Shown here: one piece after another, positions 2,569-61,898 of the stretch
Position numbering within the stretch: the stretch's first letter is position 1
How the letters are laid out: every line of letters begins with the position of its first letter
DNA from: a virus
Length of the DNA stretch: 64,000 bases
Virus record (IMG/VR): IMGVR_UViG_3300045391_000822
Location: 32,001-96,000 of that record
Reading direction: 5' to 3' (one strand)
Made by a program: the position numbers and the translations under genes
Notes under the pieces: generated by a model
The model's input: the letters and a program-made list of their open reading frames with translations, nothing else
Told to the model about the DNA's origin: nothing
Database searches by the model: none

Positions 2569-4371
2569 ATGAACCAAGAACGTAAGCAAGCCCTGATATC
2601 TCGTATCAATGCCGGAGATCATGATCTTACCATGATGTACTGCGCGCCTCTCTTGAAAGACGTGTACAAGGTAGGTCACATCTTTCAATATCCGGACAAC
2701 ACGCAGTTGGTCTACTCGAATATGACACCACGTTCAGACAAACATCTACGTGGTCGCGTAAACGAACGGGTATACGATCAGAAATCTGTTTTCTTCGGCC
2801 TGCAAGGCTTCATAATCGAAGTCTTGATGGATCATTGGAACAAGACTTTCTTTCATCGTTCGTGGTCTGAAGTAGGTGACGTGTACAAGCGTTATGTAGA
2901 TGCTGTCCTGAATACAGATTTTCCGGTCGATCATATCAAGGCGCTTCACAAGCTGGGGTACCTTCCGATTGAAATCCGAGCCTTACCGGAAGGTACGTTG
3001 GTGCCCTTTAAGATTCCTGTGTATACGGTGCACAATACGAATCCTAACTTCGGGTGGGTAACCAATATGTTGGAAACGGTCATGAGCTCCGATACATGGA
3101 AGCCTGCAACGGTGGCCACGTTGGCCTATAACTTCCGACGGACACTTGATTACTGGGCGGAAAAGACTGGTGGCATATCAGCCCTGCTTCAATGGCAAGG
3201 CCATGACTTCAGTTTCCGTGGTATGTCCAATCATCAGGATGCTGCGGCTTGTGGTGTTGGCCATCTTTGCTCGTTTTCTGGAACCGATACGTTGCCGAGT
3301 ATTGCGCGTGCAGAATTCTTGTATGGTGCGGACGTAAACAAACAGATTGTCGGTGGCTCCGTTAATGCTACGGAACATTCCGTCATGTGTATCAATGGTG
3401 GTGATGGCGAGTTGGAGACATACAAACGTCTCTTGCAAAAATACCCCACAGGTATTCTCAGTATCGTCAGCGATAGCTTCGATCTGTGGCAAGTTATCAA
3501 CGAATGGGCGCCGGGACCGCTTCGTAGCCTCATTGAAGGCCGTCAAGGTAAGGTGGTGTTCCGCCCGGATAGCGGCAATCCTGCTGATATCCTTTGCGGT
3601 ACGGTTCGTGGAATACCAAATCATTCTCAGCAAGAACTGTTCTTTGCCTATGGAGAAGCTCTGGGTACCGAAACCTTGGTTAAGGAAGTCCGTGAGGAAT
3701 ATTTCTACGTTTATTGCGTAGAAGACGATACCTATTATAAGGTCGTCGTTAAAGATGATGCCGTGGCAGAATTCGGTATGTATTTTCTTATACAAGGAGT
3801 TTTTGATGCAGACATTACGCCCGAAATGCGTGGCGTTGTAGACTGCCTGGGTTACCATTTTGGTACGGTCACCAATGAAAAGGGCTACAATGACCTTGCA
3901 GCTTGTGTTGGTACTATCTACGGTGACAGTATCAATCCTCGTCTCTTCGATGAAATCCTGAAGCGACTGGCTGACAAAGGATATAGCTCCAACTGCGTTG
4001 TCGTCGGTATCGGTAGCTACAGCTATCAGTACATGACCCGTGATACTTTGGGCTCGGCTGTTAAAGCCACCTTTGGTGTTGTTGGTGGTGTCGGTCGAGG
4101 GATCCTTAAAGATCCGAAGACAGGTGACGGTATAAAGAAAAGCGCCTATGGGCTCCTGACTGTGGCCGATATGGCAGGTGGAGGGCAAGAGCCTCTACTG
4201 GAATTGATGGACGGCGAAGTAGATATCCCTGCCGAAGCTGTCTTCGAAGGTAACTTCGACAGTGGAGAGTTGAAACCTGTCTTCCGCAATGGGCATCTAC
4301 TGAAGTTCCAGACCTTGTCCGAGATTCGTATGCGCCTGCATGGTTGGGATGATAGCATTCCTTCTCTGTAG
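2569..4371 (+). CDS. nicotinamide phosphoribosyltransferase-like protein (probable NARP1 Namat)
   Basis: DVYKVGH, HDFSFRG, GTDT, ATEHSVM, SIVSDSFD, RPDSG, IYGDSI and KDPKTGDGIKKSA are Nampt-family motifs. Confidence 0.92.
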   Translation: MNQERKQALISRINAGDHDLTMMYCAPLLKDVYKVGHIFQYPDNTQLVYSNMTPRSDKHLRGRVNERVYDQKSVFFGLQGFIIEVLMDHWNKTFFHRSWSEVGDVYKRYVDAVLNTDFPVDHIKALHKLGYLPIEIRALPEGTLVPFKIPVYTVHNTNPNFGWVTNMLETVMSSDTWKPATVATLAYNFRRTLDYWAEKTGGISALLQWQGHDFSFRGMSNHQDAAACGVGHLCSFSGTDTLPSIARAEFLYGADVNKQIVGGSVNATEHSVMCINGGDGELETYKRLLQKYPTGILSIVSDSFDLWQVINEWAPGPLRSLIEGRQGKVVFRPDSGNPADILCGTVRGIPNHSQQELFFAYGEALGTETLVKEVREEYFYVYCVEDDTYYKVVVKDDAVAEFGMYFLIQGVFDADITPEMRGVVDCLGYHFGTVTNEKGYNDLAACVGTIYGDSINPRLFDEILKRLADKGYSSNCVVVGIGSYSYQYMTRDTLGSAVKATFGVVGGVGRGILKDPKTGDGIKKSAYGLLTVADMAGGGQEPLLELMDGEVDIPAEAVFEGNFDSGELKPVFRNGHLLKFQTLSEIRMRLHGWDDSIPSL

Positions 4372-9848: not shown

Positions 9849-11519
9849 ATGTTGATAACCGCTTCCATCCTCGCCAATCTGCTTGAAGTTCTGTACGTTC
9901 TTGTCATCGATTGGAAGGAGTCCGGTGAAGGTAAAGCTCAAAGCGATACAGCTTCCGAGCTTAAACAGTTGGCTCCACGTGCTCTACGTAATTGGAAGCG
10001 TGCCCTTCCTGCACTAGAGCCTGCGCTACAATCCGCGATCTCTGGACAGAACAAGGTTGAATCCTTGGTAAGCCTAGGGCAAGAACTGAAGGATCAGTTT
10101 CCGCTCTTCCGTAAGAATCACGACTTCACTGCACAAGAACTTGAAGTAATGAATGCGCTTGGTGCGTATATGCGTACCGATAGCGAAAATGCACTGAAGA
10201 AGTTGGTCAAGCTCGCTGGTATAACCCAATCGGTTTGGGTTGCCCAGAAACTTCGCCCGGATGTAGGATCACAAGGACAATCGGAAGGCGCACTCCGTAA
10301 GCTGGTCAAGAAAATGGCTGGTCGTGATGACGTGTGCCTTACCTTGGAGGAATCCAAGGTTGCTAGGGAAACATATCCTGACGAATACAAGGAATACCTG
10401 CAGTTGAGTCGCGCATTTAACCAAGTGTGGAAAGACTCCTTGGTTAACTTTGTTCGCCAATCAAAGAAACGCTTGGTGCCCTATCAAGACGTGTTGGACT
10501 TCATGAAGTCCAACGGTATTCATAACAAGCTTCCTTTGGGCTTCACTGGTCTTATTGACGATCAAGGCAAACTGTACACACGAGACGGCAAAGCTGTTGA
10601 TGGTGTACCAAATGCAATGACGTCGCCTACCGTCAAGATGAATACCAAGTATGGTCCTGAATCACCATGGGTGTTCATGGCGGTTAAGGCTGATGGTTCA
10701 GCTCCAACGTATTTCTACACTGCGGATTTCAAAAAGAGCCAAGCCAAATCGAAGTTCACCAAGGTAAAGGATTTGACTGCACGTATTCCTCAGATGCGTG
10801 CCAAGTGGTTCATGAATGTGAAGAAGTTCAACCAAGCCAGCGTTACCTGCGTGGCATCGGTAATCCTGGAGCTCCTTTACCAGTATAGTGCCCGTGTTGG
10901 AACCACTGGCAATTCAACCTACGGTTGTGGAACGTTGTTGGTTAAACATCTAAAGAAAGAACCAACTGGTGACTACACGATTCGTTATCTAGGAAAGGAT
11001 TCGGTGCCAACCAAACATGTGGTGCGTGCATCAGACCCTGAGCAACGTTTCATTGTTGCTGCCTTAGATCAGTTGGTGGCGAATAAAGGTCCGAAAGAAA
11101 AGGTGTTCACTTCGGTGTCCCAAACTGGACGCCCGAAGTTGGTTGGACCCGTGGCTGTGAACAAGTTGTTCAAGGAATTGGCAGGTACTGCGGAAATTAC
11201 GGTACACAAACTCCGTACGTACCGTGGTACAAAGTTGTTCCAAGAACTTTCTGAGGAAATCATTCCGCGCCTTCAACCAAAGGTTGAGAAATTGGCTGCA
11301 AAGAATCCACGTCTTGCAGAGAAGCTGGTGTTGGATGAATTTCGGTCTATTGCTGAGAAAGTTGGGAAGTTGCTGAATCACGTCCGTCGTGGAGCAGCAG
11401 GTTCAAAAGTTACTGGCGTAACGGCGATCGCCAATTACATCGATCCTCAATGTTCGATAACCTTTTTCCGCAACTTAGATACTCGCCCTCCCAAGATGTT
11501 GGAAAAGTTTGATGTGTGA
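9849..11519 (+). CDS. type IB DNA topoisomerase with a long N-terminal extension
   Basis: Catalytic pentad in order: SARVG (R), YLGKD (K), HKLRTY (R), LNH (H), ANYIDP (Y); TYGCGTL motif; RBS AGGAG. Confidence 0.88.
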   Translation: MLITASILANLLEVLYVLVIDWKESGEGKAQSDTASELKQLAPRALRNWKRALPALEPALQSAISGQNKVESLVSLGQELKDQFPLFRKNHDFTAQELEVMNALGAYMRTDSENALKKLVKLAGITQSVWVAQKLRPDVGSQGQSEGALRKLVKKMAGRDDVCLTLEESKVARETYPDEYKEYLQLSRAFNQVWKDSLVNFVRQSKKRLVPYQDVLDFMKSNGIHNKLPLGFTGLIDDQGKLYTRDGKAVDGVPNAMTSPTVKMNTKYGPESPWVFMAVKADGSAPTYFYTADFKKSQAKSKFTKVKDLTARIPQMRAKWFMNVKKFNQASVTCVASVILELLYQYSARVGTTGNSTYGCGTLLVKHLKKEPTGDYTIRYLGKDSVPTKHVVRASDPEQRFIVAALDQLVANKGPKEKVFTSVSQTGRPKLVGPVAVNKLFKELAGTAEITVHKLRTYRGTKLFQELSEEIIPRLQPKVEKLAAKNPRLAEKLVLDEFRSIAEKVGKLLNHVRRGAAGSKVTGVTAIANYIDPQCSITFFRNLDTRPPKMLEKFDV

Positions 11520-16125: not shown

Positions 16126-16210
16126 GCGGGCATGGCGAAATTGGTAACCGCACCAGGTTTAGGTCCTGACGCCTTTAGGCTTTCCGGTTCGAGTCCGGAT
16201 GCCCGTACCA
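16126..16210 (+). tRNA. tRNA-Leu(UAG)
   Basis: Loop TTTAGGT, variable arm, CCA. Confidence 0.93.
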
Positions 16211-16227
16211 ACACTATTAGTTCAAGA

Positions 16228-17015
16228 CCCCGGGTGATGAAATGGGTAGACGTAGGAGACTTTAACTTATTGAGCACCACCGAAAAATGATTGGTAGTCA
16301 GTCTGCGACACAGAGATAGTGCTTAACGGCATAAAGCGAAAGCTTCAGATAATCTGACTCCGATGGTAAGACGTACGCGCAGAGGCGTAACATTCAATCG
16401 AAAGACGGTAAAACAGTTGTTGGCTTCTTTGCTTGGAATAACACCCACCTACGAACAACGAACGCCGGAATGATTAAGTTAAATCTTAATTGGGACGGAA
16501 CTAAGCGTAGGCCGGTGCCAGGTTAACAGCAATGATTGGGTGAATGGAATCAAAGTCGGCGAATGCTTTATGGTAATGAGACAAGCGAAGGCCAGCATCT
16601 TAAGATGCAAGAGTGCAGACCTTGTAAATTCCTGCTAACGCCGAGCCAAGCCTGAGAAAGTCGGGTTCAAAGTCCGAGGCCCTGTAAGAGGGATATAGCA
16701 TAGATGGAAATGCGCTCAGGAAGGTGTAGAGACTAAACGGTTCCCTCCTAAGATAGGCGACTAGCTCCATGTGTTACGGAGCTACCGCGGTAATTCCGGT
16801 AGGCCTAATTAAATCCTGCCTTATTACGGAGAAGACATAGTCCAGACCATCAAACTTTTATGGCGCCATAGGTCGAAAGCGGCAAATTTGTCGCCTGTTA
16901 AAACGGCGTCTTAGCGTTGGTTTATCTAGACCAACGGAGAAGGTAGCGAAAGCTATAGTGGTACGAAAATCTCCCGCCTTAGGGCGTACCGGTTCGAGTC
17001 CGGTCCCGGGGACCA
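16228..17015 (+). tRNA. trnL: tRNA-Leu(UAA) interrupted by a group I intron (exon 1 16228-16262, exon 2 16966-17015)
   Basis: Joining the exons gives acceptor CCCCGGG/CCCGGGG, anticodon arm GGAGA-CTT|AAAA-TCTCC, a variable arm, a T arm and ACCA. Confidence 0.92.
16263..16965 (+). mobile_element. group I intron (IC3/trnL-like), 703 nt, no ORF
   Basis: U before the 5' splice site and terminal G; Q-like AACGCCGAGCCAAG, R GTAGAGACTA and S GAAGACATAGTCC (P7 GACTA/TAGTC); starts TAACTTATTGAGC, like trnL introns. Confidence 0.9.
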
Positions 17016-17294: not shown

Positions 17295-17561
17295 ATGCGA
17301 AAAACCAATCGCAGTATACGCCGCAAGGAAAGAGCGCGCCTCAAGAAGGTTCGCAAACACTACTGGTGGGGAGCCAGCGTTGACGGACCTTTGACTGGTA
17401 AGTACCTAGGTATGGCAGTGAACACCTCTACACCGTGTTCCTGCTGGATGTGTTGTAACCCTCGGAAGAGCTGGGTGGACGATACACCTAAAGGTATGAC
17501 CGTAAAAGAAGTATCCGATAATGAACTGGCGGACCTCATGGAAACGGAGTACGTTAAGTGA
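17295..17561 (+). CDS. small basic protein with a CxCxxCCNPR motif
   Basis: RBS GGGGAG, Arg/Lys-rich N-terminus, TPCSCWMCCNPRK. Confidence 0.7.
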   Translation: MRKTNRSIRRKERARLKKVRKHYWWGASVDGPLTGKYLGMAVNTSTPCSCWMCCNPRKSWVDDTPKGMTVKEVSDNELADLMETEYVK

Positions 17562-17893
17562 CTCAACCTATTCAGTTGACTAGTGCCAATTTCGTAGAAA
17601 CGGTAGATCAGAACACCAAATTGATTGTTCGATTTACTGCACCGTGGTGTGGTCCGTGCAAGACGTTTGCTCCTGTATTTGATAAGGCTGCAGAAGAAAC
17701 GTCTGGTATGACATTTGCTGTATTGGACGTAGACGACAACCAGGATATCGCTACCGAATTCGGTATTCGTGGTGTTCCGTCCGTAGTGTTTTTCAAGGAT
17801 GGTGAGGTAGCTTACCGAATGATGGGTGCTATGACACCAACGCAGTTTCAAACAGGTATCGAAAAAGCCTTTGCTCCGAAATCGGTTTCGTAA
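17558..17893 (+). CDS. trxA: thioredoxin
   Basis: WCGPC active site, GIRGVP cis-Pro, FKDG. Confidence 0.95.
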   Translation: MTQPIQLTSANFVETVDQNTKLIVRFTAPWCGPCKTFAPVFDKAAEETSGMTFAVLDVDDNQDIATEFGIRGVPSVVFFKDGEVAYRMMGAMTPTQFQTGIEKAFAPKSVS

Positions 17894-20371: not shown

Positions 20372-20444
20372 CTCGCGTGGTCAGGTAGGTTATGTGATGG
20401 ATTGCAATCCATCTAGACTGGTTCGATTCCAGTACGCGAGTCCA
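20372..20444 (+). tRNA. tRNA-Cys(GCA), non-canonical anticodon loop size
   Basis: CTCGCGT/ACGCGAG, U73, CCA; GATGGA-TTGCAA-TCCATC. Confidence 0.82.
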
Positions 20445-21011: not shown

Positions 21012-21125
21012 ATGGAGTCGCTTTTCAACTACTTGGTGGCGAGGGCTATCGGTTACTTCCAGACTTTGAATCTGACCAAAACACCGTTGCTAATTATTCC
21101 CCAAGTAGCTGAAAAGCGATTCCGT
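21012..21125 (+). ncRNA. Y-RNA-like unit 1 (minimal; Gln-UUG anticodon stem-loop)
   Basis: ~24-bp closing stem, GGTGGCGAGG...GGTTACTTC-[CAGA-CTTTGAA-TCTG]...ATTCCCC. Confidence 0.78.
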
Positions 21126-21140
21126 AAATAACTGTGAAGA

Positions 21141-21313
21141 AGTTATCTTTGATTCTAGCAGTGGCGTAGCTGTGCAGTTACTTCGACTGTTAATCGAGTG
21201 GTCGCAGGTTCGAGTCCTGTCACTGCGTAAGTGGTGTAGCTCAGTTGGATAGAGCACTTGGCCGAAAGGCCGTTCCTGCAGGCGAGGGTTCCCTGCTAGA
21301 ATCAAAGATAATT
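21141..21313 (+). ncRNA. Y-RNA-like unit 2 (YrlA-like permuted tRNA module, Asn-GUU loop)
   Basis: 21-bp closing stem; AGTGGCGTAG...GTTACTTC, loop CTGTTAA, T arm, acceptor capped by GTAA, D arm, GTTCCCT. Confidence 0.88.
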
Positions 21314-21314
21314 T

Positions 21315-21473
21315 AGACTGTTATGATGTGTGCGGTGGTGAAGTATACGATTCCATCTCAACCAGTGGGTCGCGGGTTCGAGTCCCGTCTATCCGTCAGG
21401 ATAGTAGATCAGTTGGTAGATCAACCGGCAATTAATCGTACACGATTGTTCCCCGCACACATCATAGCAGTCT
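21315..21473 (+). ncRNA. Y-RNA-like unit 3 (YrlA-like)
   Basis: 21-bp closing stem; GGTGGTGAAG; T arm GCGGG-TTCGAGT-CCCGT, CTATCC-GTCA-GGATAG, D arm TAGATCAGTTGGTAGATC; TTGTTCCCC. Confidence 0.86.
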
Positions 21474-21487
21474 CAGAGTTTTAGTTT

Positions 21488-21633
21488 AGCAGTGGCGTAG
21501 ATAACAGTTACTTCGCATGGAAAGCCGGTACCGTAAGGTTGCGCTAGTTCGAATCTAGCCCCTCCCAAATCTGTGGGAGGGTAGGGAAGTGGATAAACCC
21601 GCCGTAACGTTCTGTTGTCGTTTGTTCCCTGCT
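21488..21633 (+). ncRNA. Y-RNA-like unit 4 (permuted tRNA-Ser mimic, GGA loop, long variable arm)
   Basis: AGCAGTGGCGTAG...GTTACTTC-GC-ATGGAAA-GC, variable arm ACC-GTAA-GGT, T arm, capped acceptor, Ser-type D loop, TTGTTCCCTGCT. Confidence 0.86.
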
Positions 21634-21635
21634 TT

Positions 21636-21711
21636 ACATCCATCGTCTAGAGGCCTAGGACACTGCCCTTTCACGGCAGGTACGCGGGTTCGAATCCCGC
21701 TGGGTGTGCCA
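21636..21711 (+). tRNA. tRNA-Glu(UUC)
   Basis: Loop CTTTCAC, Glu-type D arm, GCCA. Confidence 0.93.
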
Positions 21712-21781
21712 GTTTAGGCTCCTTGTTTCACGGACATGCTAGTCCGAGGTTTTGAAACTGGAACAAGGAGTCCTTCTTAGT

Positions 21782-21891
21782 TTTGCAGTGGCGTAATTAA
21801 TCGAGTTCATCGCTAATTGGATAAGCACTGGGGCTTGGTCCCAGTTTAGTGGTTCGATTCCACGCTCTCGATAATGTCTGTTCCCTGCAAA
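21782..21891 (+). ncRNA. Y-RNA-like unit 5 (non-permuted D-anticodon-T module)
   Basis: TTTGCAGTGGCGTAA...GTTCCCTGCAAA enclosing GCT-AATTGGATA-AGC, ACTGGG-GCTTGGT-CCCAGT and GTGG-TTCGATT-CCAC. Confidence 0.8.
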
Positions 21892-21902
21892 TTGATTTAT
21901 GT

Positions 21903-21978
21903 GGTGCGTTAGCTCAGTTGGTAGAGCGCTGGATTGTCTATCCAGAAGTCAGGAGTTCGAGCCTCCTACGCATCGCCA
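21903..21978 (+). tRNA. tRNA-Asp(GUC)
   Basis: Loop TTGTCTA, GCCA end. Confidence 0.93.
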
Positions 21979-22073
21979 AGTTTGGACCACCAGCTTGTTA
22001 ACTGAATCTGATTCATATGGCTCAGCGCGCTAGTGACCAGCTTTTTTGTAGAAGCTGGTGGTCCTACTAGTTT

Positions 22074-22189
22074 GGTAGTGGCGTAGTTAGTCGGTTACTT
22101 CTTTGCAAGAGAATGCTAGGTTCGATTCCTGGTGCGGCCGGAAGGCTGTAGGCATGGCGCCAACTACCCGACAACGTTTGTTCCCTACC
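22074..22189 (+). ncRNA. Y-RNA-like unit 6 (permuted module, Cys-GCA loop)
   Basis: GGTAGTGGCGTAG...GGTTACTTC, TTCT-TTGCAAG-AGAA, T arm, GCGGCC-GGAA-GGCTGT, short D arm, TTGTTCCCTACC. Confidence 0.84.
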
Positions 22190-22372
22190 TACCCTGTCTC
22201 TGTTTCTGCCTGACGCAGAGATACGCGCTGTCAAGTTCTTGTAGACCCGGTGGGGCCGGCACCTATGAGGATTTGACAGCGCATCTTTTTGGGGTTGGTG
22301 AGGAAGTTGAACGTCTACGAACTACCGAAGTTCGTTCTTTCATCTGTCACTCTTCACTACAAAGGAGCCAAA

Positions 22373-23845
22373 ATGGCCCACCTCAACCGTAAAGCTGATC
22401 CGCATCGTAAAGCGGTAACCAAAGAATCTGTCCTTAACAATGCTCCGTTCGAGCAACTTTCCCGTGCAGTGATGACCTGCCTGCTGTGGGAAGGTACTGA
22501 AGACGAACGCATATCCAAGCTCGTTCCCAGCGTTCCGCTGGAAGATGTAGCGTACCTGGCACGGACGGCACATGAAGATATGAAGCTGCGCCATGTGCCG
22601 CTACTCCTGGCTCGGGAAATGGCGCGCCATCCAGGTCGTGTGGAAAATCCTTCCGTCATCGCGAACACGATTGAAGCGGTTATCAACCGTCCTGATTCAT
22701 TGACGGAATTCCTGGCTATCTATTGGAAGGATGGACGTCAGCCATTGTCAGGCCAGGTAAAGAAAGGTCTGGCTCGCGCATTTGCAAAATTCAGCGAGTA
22801 TCAACTAGCGAAGTACAATCGTGATCACGAAGTGAAGTTGCGCGACGTGCTCTTCCTTTCACATGCAAAGCCGAAAGACGTTGAACCTGGTTCTGCTTTG
22901 TGGAATAAGGATGCGCGTACCAACTACAAACCAAACAAGGGGTTTGTACGCGAGTTCACGAAAGGCGAACTCCTGTATGGTCGAGTAGTTCACGATCAGT
23001 TGGTTTCCCCAGAAACGTGGGAAAACAAGCTGTCACGCGGCAAAGACAAGAAAGAAACGTTTGCTGATTTGATGAAGAGTGGTAAGTTGGGAGGCCTGGC
23101 TTTCCTGCGTAACCTGCGCAATATCAAAGAAGCCGGCATATCTAAGGATGTGGTCAATAGCTATGCAGATGTAGCCAAGGTTGATGGAATCCTGCCTTTC
23201 CAGTTCATGTCTGCGCAACGTGCAGTTCCTGAATGGGAAGATGCCATCGAGAAGATGATGCTCCGCGCAGTGGAGAACATTCCCAAACTACCAGGACGCA
23301 CGGTGTTGGTTGTGGACTTGTCGGGTTCCATGAGAGCGCAGATGGCAGATAAGTCGGGATTGGAACGTACTGATGTAGCGGCAGCATTCAGTGTTCTGTG
23401 CCGTGAACTGTGCGAGAACATTGCAGTGTTTGCTACGGCAGGTAACGACCATAGCCGGAAGCACGCTACGATAACTGTTCCGCCGCGTCGTGGATTTGCT
23501 TTGGCAGAAAAGCTGCGTGTTGGTGGAGATCAAGAAATCTATCGTCGCATTGGCCAAGGCGGTATTTTCCTTAAGCAGGTTACGGAGTTCGTTTCTGGCA
23601 CCCTTGGTGATCAAGATGTCGAACGTTGTATCGTCATCACTGACGAACAGGATACGGATATCGACGGAACTTCTGCGAAAGCAAAGTTGATCGGTAAACA
23701 CAACTACATCGTCAACATCGCGACGAACGCTCGAGGTATCGGTTACGGACGTTTCACCCATATCAATGGATGGTCCGAAGCTGTACTGAAGTTCATCGCA
23801 GCCTATGAAGCGAACGAAGAAACGATGCACAAAGGTGCAGCTTAA
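22373..23845 (+). CDS. rsr: Ro60/Rsr TROVE-vWA RNA-binding protein
   Basis: LRHVPLLL, KYNR, LRDVLFLSH, TWE..LS and LGGLAFLRNLRNI (TROVE); VVDLSGSM MIDAS and ITDEQ (vWA); RBS AAGGAG before the ATG at 22373. Confidence 0.93.
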   Translation: MAHLNRKADPHRKAVTKESVLNNAPFEQLSRAVMTCLLWEGTEDERISKLVPSVPLEDVAYLARTAHEDMKLRHVPLLLAREMARHPGRVENPSVIANTIEAVINRPDSLTEFLAIYWKDGRQPLSGQVKKGLARAFAKFSEYQLAKYNRDHEVKLRDVLFLSHAKPKDVEPGSALWNKDARTNYKPNKGFVREFTKGELLYGRVVHDQLVSPETWENKLSRGKDKKETFADLMKSGKLGGLAFLRNLRNIKEAGISKDVVNSYADVAKVDGILPFQFMSAQRAVPEWEDAIEKMMLRAVENIPKLPGRTVLVVDLSGSMRAQMADKSGLERTDVAAAFSVLCRELCENIAVFATAGNDHSRKHATITVPPRRGFALAEKLRVGGDQEIYRRIGQGGIFLKQVTEFVSGTLGDQDVERCIVITDEQDTDIDGTSAKAKLIGKHNYIVNIATNARGIGYGRFTHINGWSEAVLKFIAAYEANEETMHKGAA

Positions 23846-60650: not shown

Positions 60651-61053
60651 GCTCGAAGGAGCGGTACTCAACTACTGGGTTGCACAAGTAGAACAGCTTC
60701 TGTGTAAGGTACACGTGAATCAATTTGGTGTATCGGTGGCCAGGACTAACAGAGGAGTCTACAATCCTGCAGGTATTCCGTCGGAAGGCCATCCCTTGAT
60801 GGAGCTCTACCTAATTGGAGTAGATACGTGGCAACGAGATATGTTCAGTGACAATATCTGGGCAGCTTCGTTCTCTCACCCGGTACCACACCCAGATACA
60901 AAACGTAGTCCCAGTCATCATCGTATGCGCGGTCCACGACCGCTTGTAGCGGCGATGCGTACCTTGGTGTCTTCAAAGTATGGCGACCAGGTACCAGAAA
61001 TTCCAAAAGAAGATCTTGTTATTGAAGAGCTGGATATTTTTAGGAGTAGATAA
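60637..61053 (+). CDS. NinX/DUF2591-like protein
   Basis: ELEGAVLNYWVA...YNP...G.PL...G..PLVAAMR.LV.SKYG..V. Confidence 0.7.
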   Translation: MNTAELEGAVLNYWVAQVEQLLCKVHVNQFGVSVARTNRGVYNPAGIPSEGHPLMELYLIGVDTWQRDMFSDNIWAASFSHPVPHPDTKRSPSHHRMRGPRPLVAAMRTLVSSKYGDQVPEIPKEDLVIEELDIFRSR

Positions 61054-61898
61054 TGCTAGGTTGGATGAGTAAGTTTCAACAACGTGTTCAGCGATGGATG
61101 TTCAGGGTCTTTGATGAAGAAATTGTCCTAAGTGCTGAAGAGCGTAATGAACGCTTTCTGGAAGAAGCCGTAGAGCTTGTCCAGGCGTTGAACATGACGG
61201 AAGAACAGGCCATTCAAGTTGTGAAGTATGTATTCGGTCGTCCGAAAGGTGAGGTTCGCCAAGAAGTGGGCGGTGTCATGGTTACGCTTGCTACGCTATG
61301 TTCCGTTCAGGGTATAAATCCCTTTACGTGCGCAGATGTAGAGATGACTCGAGTTGAAGACCCAGCGATCATGGCCAAGGTTAAGGCGAAACAAGCACTG
61401 AAGCCGAAGTTTCGCGCAGACCGACCTGATCTTAGCTTCGAGATGACACGTGAAGAATTCATCCATCGCTTTCCGTGGGTTGACCCGACCGTTGGTAAGG
61501 AAGGTGCTGATCCGATGCGTCGCAATAGCGATCTCGATTTGAAGCCATGCGTGGTGGAGAAGCAGGGTCACGTCGCGGTCTGCACAGGATCGGTTCATAA
61601 GGGGTTAGGTTACATTCGTCCTAGTCCTTCTGCTCACCTTGATCGTGTTGCCAATCTAGATTGGGAGCTGTTCTCGGTTTCGTCGATAGGGGTTATCGAT
61701 GGCCAGACATATCTATGGGGTATGTATGTTGAGGGCATTGGTGCGTTCAACGTTATGGTTCCCAAGGAGTTCACCCGAGAGCTTCTACCGCATGAACGCG
61801 AAGCTTGGTCCAAACAACGTATGGGAATGTATGGATCCCATTCCGATAAATTCAGCTATACAACAGGATCTGGTGTAGCACCTGTGGAAGAAGCATGA
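61053..61898 (+). CDS. MazG-like nucleotide pyrophosphohydrolase domain fused to an unknown C-terminal domain
   Basis: ER..RFLEEAVELVQA...EV.QEVGGVMVTL all-alpha NTP-PPase pattern. Confidence 0.65.
   Translation: MLGWMSKFQQRVQRWMFRVFDEEIVLSAEERNERFLEEAVELVQALNMTEEQAIQVVKYVFGRPKGEVRQEVGGVMVTLATLCSVQGINPFTCADVEMTRVEDPAIMAKVKAKQALKPKFRADRPDLSFEMTREEFIHRFPWVDPTVGKEGADPMRRNSDLDLKPCVVEKQGHVAVCTGSVHKGLGYIRPSPSAHLDRVANLDWELFSVSSIGVIDGQTYLWGMYVEGIGAFNVMVPKEFTRELLPHEREAWSKQRMGMYGSHSDKFSYTTGSGVAPVEEA

Follow-up and report, generated by a model that had tools for sequence, protein, structure and literature searches.

The DNA analysed here (the window) is a 64,000-nt stretch taken from an IMG/VR virus contig of 155.6 kb (bases 32001-96000), the completeness of which is put at 66%. 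The tail sheath shares 55-60% identity with the sheaths of jumbo myoviruses of Betaproteobacteria (Burkholderia phages BcepSaruman and BcepSauron, Ralstonia phiRSL1, and Achromobacter Motura). Some 20 tRNA genes lie between 13.5 and 27 kb of the window, together with a two-piece tmRNA (83.5 bits), a TROVE/Ro60 gene, and an array of Y-RNA-like units. The array lies on the + strand at 21012-22190, where two segments match the Rfam YrlA family RF02553 (21336-21458 and 21197-21258; 50.3 and 44.8 bits) and several units carry a module running from T arm through capped hairpin to D arm; in all, the phage has six Y RNAs of its own with tRNA-like modules. The Ro60/Rsr orthologue, at 22289-23845 on the same strand, possesses a TROVE domain (Pfam PF05731, E 5e-15).

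Upstream of this array, again on the + strand, a tRNA-Leu(UAA) gene is interrupted between U34 and A35. Its 5′ exon (16228-16262) ends in ...GGAGACUU, with U-1 at 16262, and its 3′ exon (16966-17015) comprises AAAAUCUCC, a long variable arm, the T arm, and CCCGGGG, followed by ACCA. When 16262 is joined to 16966, ARAGORN reports an 85-nt tRNA-Leu(taa); i.e., intron removal restores the host gene. The junction, CUU/...g/AAAA, is the classical insertion site in tRNA-Leu(UAA) (10.1101/2020.01.27.920355).

The intervening 703 nt (16263-16965, + strand, with a terminal G at 16965) constitute a group I intron in tRNA-Leu(UAA), predicted to be self-splicing and identified by a match to the Rfam Intron_gpI model (RF00028) and by a homologous core. 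Modelling with Intron_gpI, as proposed in the original prediction, did place an insertion in P6, at a score of just 21.3 bits (E 0.007; full model aligned over 16470-16863). This lies below the RF00028 gathering threshold (50 bits), which we attribute to the large insertions in P2, P5, P6, and P8. No + strand open reading frame of at least 40 aa was found inside the intron, and a 52-aa frame (16132-16290) overlaps just its first 28 nt. A second Intron_gpI match, at window positions 60964-61147 (18.8 bits), lies in coding sequence, was not reproduced, and was rejected.

Core helices can be read as P3 GGAAUC/GGUUCC, P4 UCGGCG/CGCCGA, P6 GCC/GGU, and P7 GACUA/UAGUC. The core resembles those of IC3 introns, with P2, P5, P6, P8, and P9 enlarged; we take the related bacterial tRNA introns, such as that of Azoarcus tRNA-Ile, to be of the IC3 type. 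It is identical or near-identical to the core of the tRNA-Leu intron in Agrobacterium phage Atu_ph07 and to those of more than 100 viral introns. The Atu_ph07 intron is unannotated.

With the classical tRNA-Leu(UAA) introns of cyanobacteria and plastids, the window intron shares its insertion site, U-1, the terminal G, the lack of an open reading frame, and the core around P4′, P6, and P7 (CGCCGAGCCAAG...AAGGUGUAGAGACUARACGG). It differs from them in (i) length, being approximately three times larger (703 vs. ~250 nt), (ii) a score below the Rfam gathering threshold, (iii) extra domains, the CACCACCGAAAAAUG and AAUCGAAAGACGGUAAA blocks, common only to a small phage subfamily, and (iv) a tRNA-shaped four-way junction in place of the P6a tetraloop. 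This large-intron subfamily comprises the window intron together with L124, L249, L250, L252, L255, L259, and L260, and shares the additional 5′ blocks CACCACCGAAAAATG and AATCGAAAGACGGTAAA. Within it, L249 interrupts tRNA-Leu(UAA) at the same site as the window intron, and L260 interrupts a tRNA with the anticodon CAU.

Anatomy of a permuted tRNA-like module

In the Rfam alignment, an insertion of 65 nt falls within the P6 stem-loop, and homologues display a short hairpin at the same spot; from these two observations, the module is assigned to the P6 hairpin, in the P4′-P7 interval. Together with the joining of the exons, this bears out the earlier view of the segment as a P6 extension of a tRNA-Leu group I intron. 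The 5′ strand of P6 (GCC, 16645-16647, + strand, as are all elements that follow) pairs with GGU at 16723-16725 across an internal loop, AAG/AA. P6a then closes the module: its 5′ strand, CCUGAG (16651-16656), replaces the 3′ strand of an anticodon stem, and its 3′ strand, CUCAGG (16715-16720), replaces the 5′ strand.

Between the strands of P6a lies a linker, AAAG (16657-16660), with the 4 nt equivalent to a variable loop (44-46 plus 48), followed by a T arm, UCGGG-UUCAAAG-UCCGA (16661-16677), with a 5-bp stem, a 7-nt loop, and G-U at 53-61. A GG spacer (16678-16679) leads into a capped acceptor-like hairpin of 4 bp, CCCU-GUAAG-AGGG (16680-16692), the layout of which matches the AS stem-loop of YrlA; via GG 16678-16679 and AU 16693-16694, this hairpin can be extended to six pairs, of which one is G-U and one G-A. 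Next come ATATA (16693-16697), including the U8 and A9 equivalents at 16696-16697 directly 5′ of the D stem, the D arm GCAT-AGATGGAA-ATGC (16698-16713; 4-bp stem GCAU/AUGC, 8-nt loop AGAUGGAA), and a G26 equivalent (16714) between D stem and closing helix.

Every arm that had been described for 16651-16720 is thus in place, and the minimum-free-energy (MFE) fold of 16645-16726 consists of P6, the internal loop, P6a, and a four-way junction with three hairpins, just as first described. All 19 of the 19 pairs in the four module helices are Watson-Crick or G-U. The four-way junction is retained in the MFE fold of the whole 703-nt intron; the centroid does not keep all arms. To judge from these predicted folds, the module is in all probability a 58-nt independently folding four-way junction that takes the place of the usual P6a tetraloop cap.

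The layout is that of a circularly permuted tRNA, with P6a standing where the anticodon stem would be and the acceptor stem turned into a capped hairpin. In tRNA numbering, the linker reads A44 A45 A46 G48 and the T stem 49-53/61-65, around a T loop of U54 U55 C56 A57 A58 A59 G60; on the D side, U8 A9 precede the D stem, G10-U13/A22-C25, which encloses a D loop of A14 G15 A16 U17 G18 G19 A20 A21 and is followed by G26. Fifteen positions are in register with tRNA (U8, A9, G10, A14, G15, G18, G19, A21, G26, G53, U54, U55, C56, A57, and A58), such that nucleotides are present for the G18G19-U55C56 elbow, the U54-A58 pair, the U8-A14-A21 triple, and the 26-44 pair. The Levitt pair 15-48 is absent (G15/G48), and the linkers measure 2 and 5 nt where tRNA has 0 and 2. 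The suggestion that the intron presents a tRNA elbow is upheld in part: the layout and the G18G19/U55C56 nucleotides make an elbow plausible.

The same order of T arm, acceptor-like hairpin, and D arm had been noted in the Y units 5 kb downstream, and the Rfam YrlA matches together with the permuted modules at 21204-21255, 21372-21422, and 21543-21600 substantiate this parallel. An RNA adjoining the Ro60 gene of another viral contig (G002) also has the permuted layout. The YrlA consensus proceeds from a helix through 4 nt, a T arm, a capped stem-loop, UA, and a D arm back to the helix. YrlA RNAs (RF02553; PMC4201824; 6CU1, 10.1101/312249) and the intron module have in common the permutation, the short variable linker, the lack of a CCA end, and the same elbow and triple nucleotides (G18G19-U55C56, U54-A58, and U8-A14-A21), and the crystal structure of a YrlA tRNA-like domain shows the elbow and triple interactions (Wang et al. 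2018, 6CU1, 10.1101/312249). The host phage, moreover, itself encodes Ro60 and YrlA-type RNAs. Unlike YrlA, the module resides inside an intron helix, P6a, rather than under the scaffold that the Y units have in common, and is without a Ro60-binding stem; is not next to rsr, the TROVE gene being 5.6 kb downstream; and has no Rfam match, no Levitt pair, and a G-U at 53-61.

At the sequence level, the resemblance ends early. Rfam YrlA and tRNA models returned only noise, and no match, on 16640-16730 at E up to 10. A custom model (R1) made from the three Y-unit modules aligns with the intron module at full length (16652-16719) at a marginal 13.2 bits (E 0.022), a score below those of many tRNA-tRNA junctions. 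At up to 3 mismatches, the window yielded no near-copy of either arm, T or D, and blastn returned no similarity to the module in GenBank phages. As judged from these comparisons, the module resembles a YrlA effector domain in design and is not a sequence-level member of the family, and no donor can be named. The 4-6 bp of its compact, capped acceptor-like stem accord with how YrlA is built; had two tRNA genes simply been joined, 7-bp stems and an intervening spacer would be expected.

Could an ordinary branched P6 extension have come to resemble tRNA arms by chance? A descriptor was built in which a closing helix (6 bp or longer) encloses a 5-bp stem topped by the loop TTCRANN, then a capped hairpin, and then a D arm with a loop that begins with A and includes GG; it was devised after the module had been seen, which renders the chance figure derived from it optimistic. 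Over 19.2 Mb of sequence from 150 dinucleotide shuffles, the descriptor matched twice, roughly one match per 10 Mb; applied to the real window, it picked out the module site and one Y RNA unit only. In 3.6 Mb of other loci, there were 11 weaker matches with closing helices of just 4-5 bp, and at least some of these are junctions of adjacent real tRNA genes, a source of false positives for the permuted layout against which Chen et al. 2014 caution (PMC4201824). A fold z-score of just -1.8 against shuffles, the failure of Rfam models to recognise the module, and the post hoc construction of the descriptor leave chance some room. Against it stand the rarity of comparable motifs in the shuffles, the 15 canonical positions matched in register, and the lack of a T-arm hairpin in any of those listed among the more than 100 long P6 extensions of metagenomes, or in those from the viral and genome collections. 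The tRNA likeness exceeds chance, given the post hoc design of the test, and chance is in our view a very improbable account.

The permuted order invites a further explanation, namely that the module is a permuted tRNA gene or RNase P substrate, from which a small functional tRNA-like RNA would be excised. Permuted tRNA genes, in which the 3′ half likewise precedes the 5′ half, occur in Cyanidioschyzon. The YrlA of M. smegmatis offers a precedent, being cleaved by RNase P and supplied with CCA (PMC4201824). The module, for its part, has an acceptor-like stem of 4 bp (6 at most) capped by 5 nt, with neither discriminator nor CCA, and the place of an anticodon loop is occupied by the intron; ARAGORN and the Rfam tRNA model make no call on it. 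RNase P cleaves only YrlA with a 7-bp stem, leaving those without one uncleaved (Chen et al. 2014, PMC4201824). Processing into a small RNA is thus extremely unlikely, and recruitment of RNase P, as had originally been considered, is likewise improbable for so short and capped a stem, even when lengthened to 6 bp with G-U and G-A.

Variability of P6 among related introns

Approximately 119 viral introns with the same core (i.e., more than 100) mostly carry a plain P6 hairpin of 20-35 nt; measured from GCCAAG to AAGGTG, the interval is usually 22-35 nt. This GCCAAG...AAGGTG frame is kept in all homologues, and a typical P6a has 4-8 bp beneath a GAAA-type loop cap. P6a itself covaries, as seen in CCUGAG/CUCAGG, CCUAG/CUAGG, ACAAA/UUUGU, CAUCC/GGAUG, and CUUAAC/GUUAAG. 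Among the eight closest introns, L249 included, the P6 extensions vary in length, from approximately 20 to 220 nt, and have no sequence relationship to one another.

The module is absent from L249, the other tRNA-Leu intron of the subfamily, and no other intron with both a T-arm hairpin and a D arm in P6 was found in IMG/VR, in 185,579 genomes, or among the extensions listed from metagenomes. In IMG/VR, a search for a T loop lying 35-65 nt before the P7 core gave two chance matches, and three introns with P6 inserts of 55-85 nt (L036, L054, and L124) are all non-tRNA-like. In metagenomes, P6 inserts of 55-85 nt yielded more than 100 distinct long extensions, mostly long hairpins, with no T-arm hairpin among the matches listed; in the 185,579 genomes, a two-gap pattern gave four matches, in which TTCRA is buried in long stems. 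When a T loop was sought in IMG/VR 10-40 nt before P7, or after CCGAGCCAAG, the subfamily member L255 was the only intron recovered, all other matches being without the intron core. Closer relatives of the phage were not found either, whether via the Rsr protein against viral contigs or via exact-protein matches for two genes downstream of the tRNA, and the adjacent 115-aa open reading frame has no homologue other than itself.

No homologue carries the module, and there is hence no covariation or conservation signal for selection on it. By these sequence comparisons, the module is lineage-specific, being found in one phage. Related introns lack it, from which it follows that the module would be dispensable for catalysis and that a general role in splicing is unlikely. 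The original prediction had tied its fate to two points, on which the outcome is divided: the segment does fold as described, and the homologous introns do not conserve it, P6 being hypervariable even in L249.

L255, from IMG/VR contig 3300002026_000001 (record G003; 27 bits against Rfam Intron_gpI), provides a looser parallel. Like the window intron, with which it shares its subfamily, it has a four-way junction bearing T-arm hairpins at the same P6a tip; here, there are two canonical T arms, CGUGG-UUCAACU-CCACG and GCGGG-UUCGAUU-CCCGC. Unlike the module, the L255 junction combines two T arms with a GAAA-capped hairpin and has no D arm. It follows the topology of a cloverleaf in normal order: one T arm directly adjoins the 3′ strand of the closing helix. 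No recognisable tRNA exons flank L255. In a kinship comparison of G003 with the window phage, a helicase query gave just a distant match, in record G001. No Ro60 gene was found in G003, a 50%-complete fragment, and among the records of five relatives only G002 has a TROVE gene, its P6 not being tRNA-like; T arms in P6 and the presence of Ro60 do not correlate.

Across the eight related introns (~5 kb in total), T-arm hairpins occur only in P6 extensions, the expectation from shuffles being approximately 2 per 100 kb. A D-loop-like motif, AUGGAWA, recurs in loops of the P6 extensions of the window intron, L124, and L249, any significance of this being post hoc. Such recurrence would suit an intramolecular scaffold, in which the elbow or T loop docks on an extension of P2, P5, P8, or P9, or on the tRNA body of the exons, to stabilise an unusually large ribozyme; the size of the intron, roughly three times the classical one, and its many extra domains speak for this. 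T loops are common motifs for long-range tertiary contacts (10.1101/2022.12.26.521914). No receptor was found, though, and T loops are missing from the P6 extensions of relatives that share the extra domains, implying no conserved partner; furthermore, the natural partner of the T loop, the GG of the D loop, is already inside the module. We regard scaffolding as unlikely.

As to origin, capture of a tRNA or Y-RNA-type module in an insertion-tolerant loop is most likely. Whether function followed is less easily decided. A recent tRNA- or Y-RNA-derived sequence may have recombined into the P6a loop and persisted there as a neutral passenger, its tRNA likeness owed to its young age, an explanation that we hold to be a tentative but serious one, almost as likely as the reading preferred below. 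P6 loops of phage T4 introns host insertions of open reading frames, no part of the introns studied here varies more than the P6 tip, and the dense surrounding cluster of tRNAs and Y RNAs could donate sequence; absence from L249 and the deviations from tRNA (G15/G48, G53-U61, and extra linker nucleotides) point the same way. A raw fragment should nonetheless have kept a 7-bp acceptor or show broken pairs, whereas the acceptor here is neatly trimmed and capped, with the 19 pairs and 15 key nucleotides intact. Neither the window nor GenBank phages yielded a donor, and a T-arm junction of different construction occupies the same site in L255.

Proposed function of the module

The reading that we favour, with a probability of roughly 0.4 for structure and function taken together, is that of a lineage-specific, noncatalytic mimic of the tRNA elbow that would act as a handle, tether, or competitor. 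Homology to other group I introns places P6a at the end of the P5-P4-P6 stack, from where the module would project away from the catalytic core; its position at the far end of that stack, away from the active site, is one we presume by analogy with solved group I structures. The GG of the D loop and the UC of the T loop would form an elbow, in what may be an L-shaped fold. The pre-tRNA, and particularly the intron once excised, could then become a ligand for proteins that recognise elbows or T arms, candidates being TruB, TrmA, and Dus-type enzymes, or a factor that reads the modules of the six Y RNAs. The intron would in this way be one more tRNA mimic of the phage, rather than having gained an element for splicing. 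Recruitment of a splicing factor and a decoy role, both raised in the original prediction, are hypothetical.

TruB and DusA both act on YrlA modules (PMC4201824), which makes modification of the intron module plausible. For a phage with six tRNA-like Y RNAs already among its products, a role in trans confined to this lineage fits better than one in splicing. In a more specific version, the excised intron itself would serve as a Y-RNA-type mimic, with an effector module read by a Y-RNA factor or by host elbow-binding, defence, or repair proteins; we consider this unlikely. We know of no binding partner of YrlA modules.

There is a precedent for group I introns using tRNA-like features of P4-P6 to engage a tRNA-binding protein, in that Caprara and colleagues reportedly found in 1996 that the mitochondrial tyrosyl-tRNA synthetase CYT-18 recognises the P4-P6 stack as tRNA-like. 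In that system, mimicry resides in the overall shape of the stacked core helices; in the window intron, the putative mimicry is confined to a separate module that bears T and D loops, and the partner of this module is only hypothetical. The case of tmRNA is the inverse, with an intron inside a tRNA-like domain where here a tRNA-like domain is inside an intron; in both, group I introns are closely tied to tRNA-like domains, in bacteria and in phages. In full-text literature searches, no group I intron turned up that had been described as containing a tRNA-like module, in keeping with the remark made at the outset that no such domain was known from described introns, and a review (PMC3984707) is silent on tRNA-like P6 domains. 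Besides CYT-18 and the tmRNA introns, the concepts that come closest are YrlA and the tRNA mimics of viruses.

Ultimately, a discrete, near-canonical tRNA mimic on P6 would represent a peripheral domain of a new kind. The phage around it also carries approximately 20 tRNAs, a two-piece tmRNA, Ro60, and six tRNA-like Y RNAs. The case for such a domain rests on one instance and one looser parallel, and would be of interest to RNA specialists. Should the module be neutral, it would be a record of tRNA-shaped modules moving into structured RNAs, with the P6 tip as a site of uptake. Were the excised intron a Y-RNA-type mimic, the maturation of a phage tRNA by splicing would set free an RNA with a regulatory or decoy role, and L255 would be a second, independently evolved intron displaying tRNA parts. 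If functional, the module would link self-splicing to tRNA-recognising proteins or to Y-RNA biology, and would thereby provide a compact natural bait for the partner of YrlA-type domains.

Conserved blocks and a recurring loop motif

The large phage group I introns related to the ORF-less intron of the window's tRNA-Leu(UAA) gene share two subfamily-specific sequence blocks, CACCACCGAAAAATG..GGTAGT and AATCGAAAGACGGTAAA (window 16276-16300 and 16403-16419, respectively), which are located in the enlarged 5' part of the introns and are common to the window copy and to those at the loci L124, L249, L250, L252, L255, L259, and L260. Three of these related introns also have the loop motif ATGGAWA in common, each within its P6 extension (window 16703-16709; L124 ~10577-10586; and the P6 extension of L249); only in the window does it lie in a D-arm-like hairpin.

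Subfamily introns and their flanking genes

A group I ribozyme of this subfamily was detected on the minus strand of IMGVR_UViG_3300002026_000001 (L255:1020-1660; Rfam, 27 bits). No tRNA exons could be recognised for this ribozyme, which has a terminator-like hairpin on one side and a response-regulator gene on the other. Likewise, tRNA exons were looked for, and not found, for the introns at L124:10190-10840 and L252:9240-9914; downstream of these lies an intact tRNA gene (tRNA-Met and tRNA-Arg, respectively), at a distance of a few to tens of nucleotides.

In the window itself, a thioredoxin gene (17558-17893) follows the split tRNA-Leu at a distance of ~0.5 kb, and a nicotinamide phosphoribosyltransferase gene is found at 2569-4371 (PHROG 448, E 3e-167). 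A weak Intron_gpI match from the whole-genome search (60964-61147; 18.8 bits) is probably spurious, as cmscan failed to recover it and it falls within coding sequence.

Interrupted tRNA genes in other phages

Agrobacterium phage Atu_ph07 (MF403008.1) carries an unannotated tRNA-Leu(UAA) gene interrupted by a group I intron (L001:2714-3073, i.e., ~112890-113250 of MF403008.1; minus strand). This intron is ~275 nt long, with a short P6, and the 3' exon is covered by AUZ94936.1, annotated as a hypothetical protein.

The layout of phage contig G002, from a relative encoding a TROVE/Ro60 protein, resembles that of the window (L260:1340-1890; L293:500-555; L293/L294). There, a tRNA(CAU) gene is interrupted by an intron of the same subfamily, the P6 extension of which is without tRNA likeness; the TROVE/Ro60 gene lies ~6 kb downstream and is preceded by a permuted tRNA-like Y module.

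Y-RNA units and probable tRNA-like RNAs

ARAGORN called a tRNA-Asn inside a Y-RNA unit (window 21157-21228) and a tRNA with a 2-nt anticodon immediately upstream of tRNA-Ser (window 20372-20444); both are probably tRNA-like RNAs and not working tRNAs. In the Y-RNA unit at window 21782-21897, the tRNA-like part runs from a D arm through a hairpin to a T arm, which is the normal order, and has an acceptor-like closing helix. Its normal-order topology is similar to that of the P6 module of the L255 ribozyme, in which two canonical T arms are part of a four-way junction at the P6 tip.
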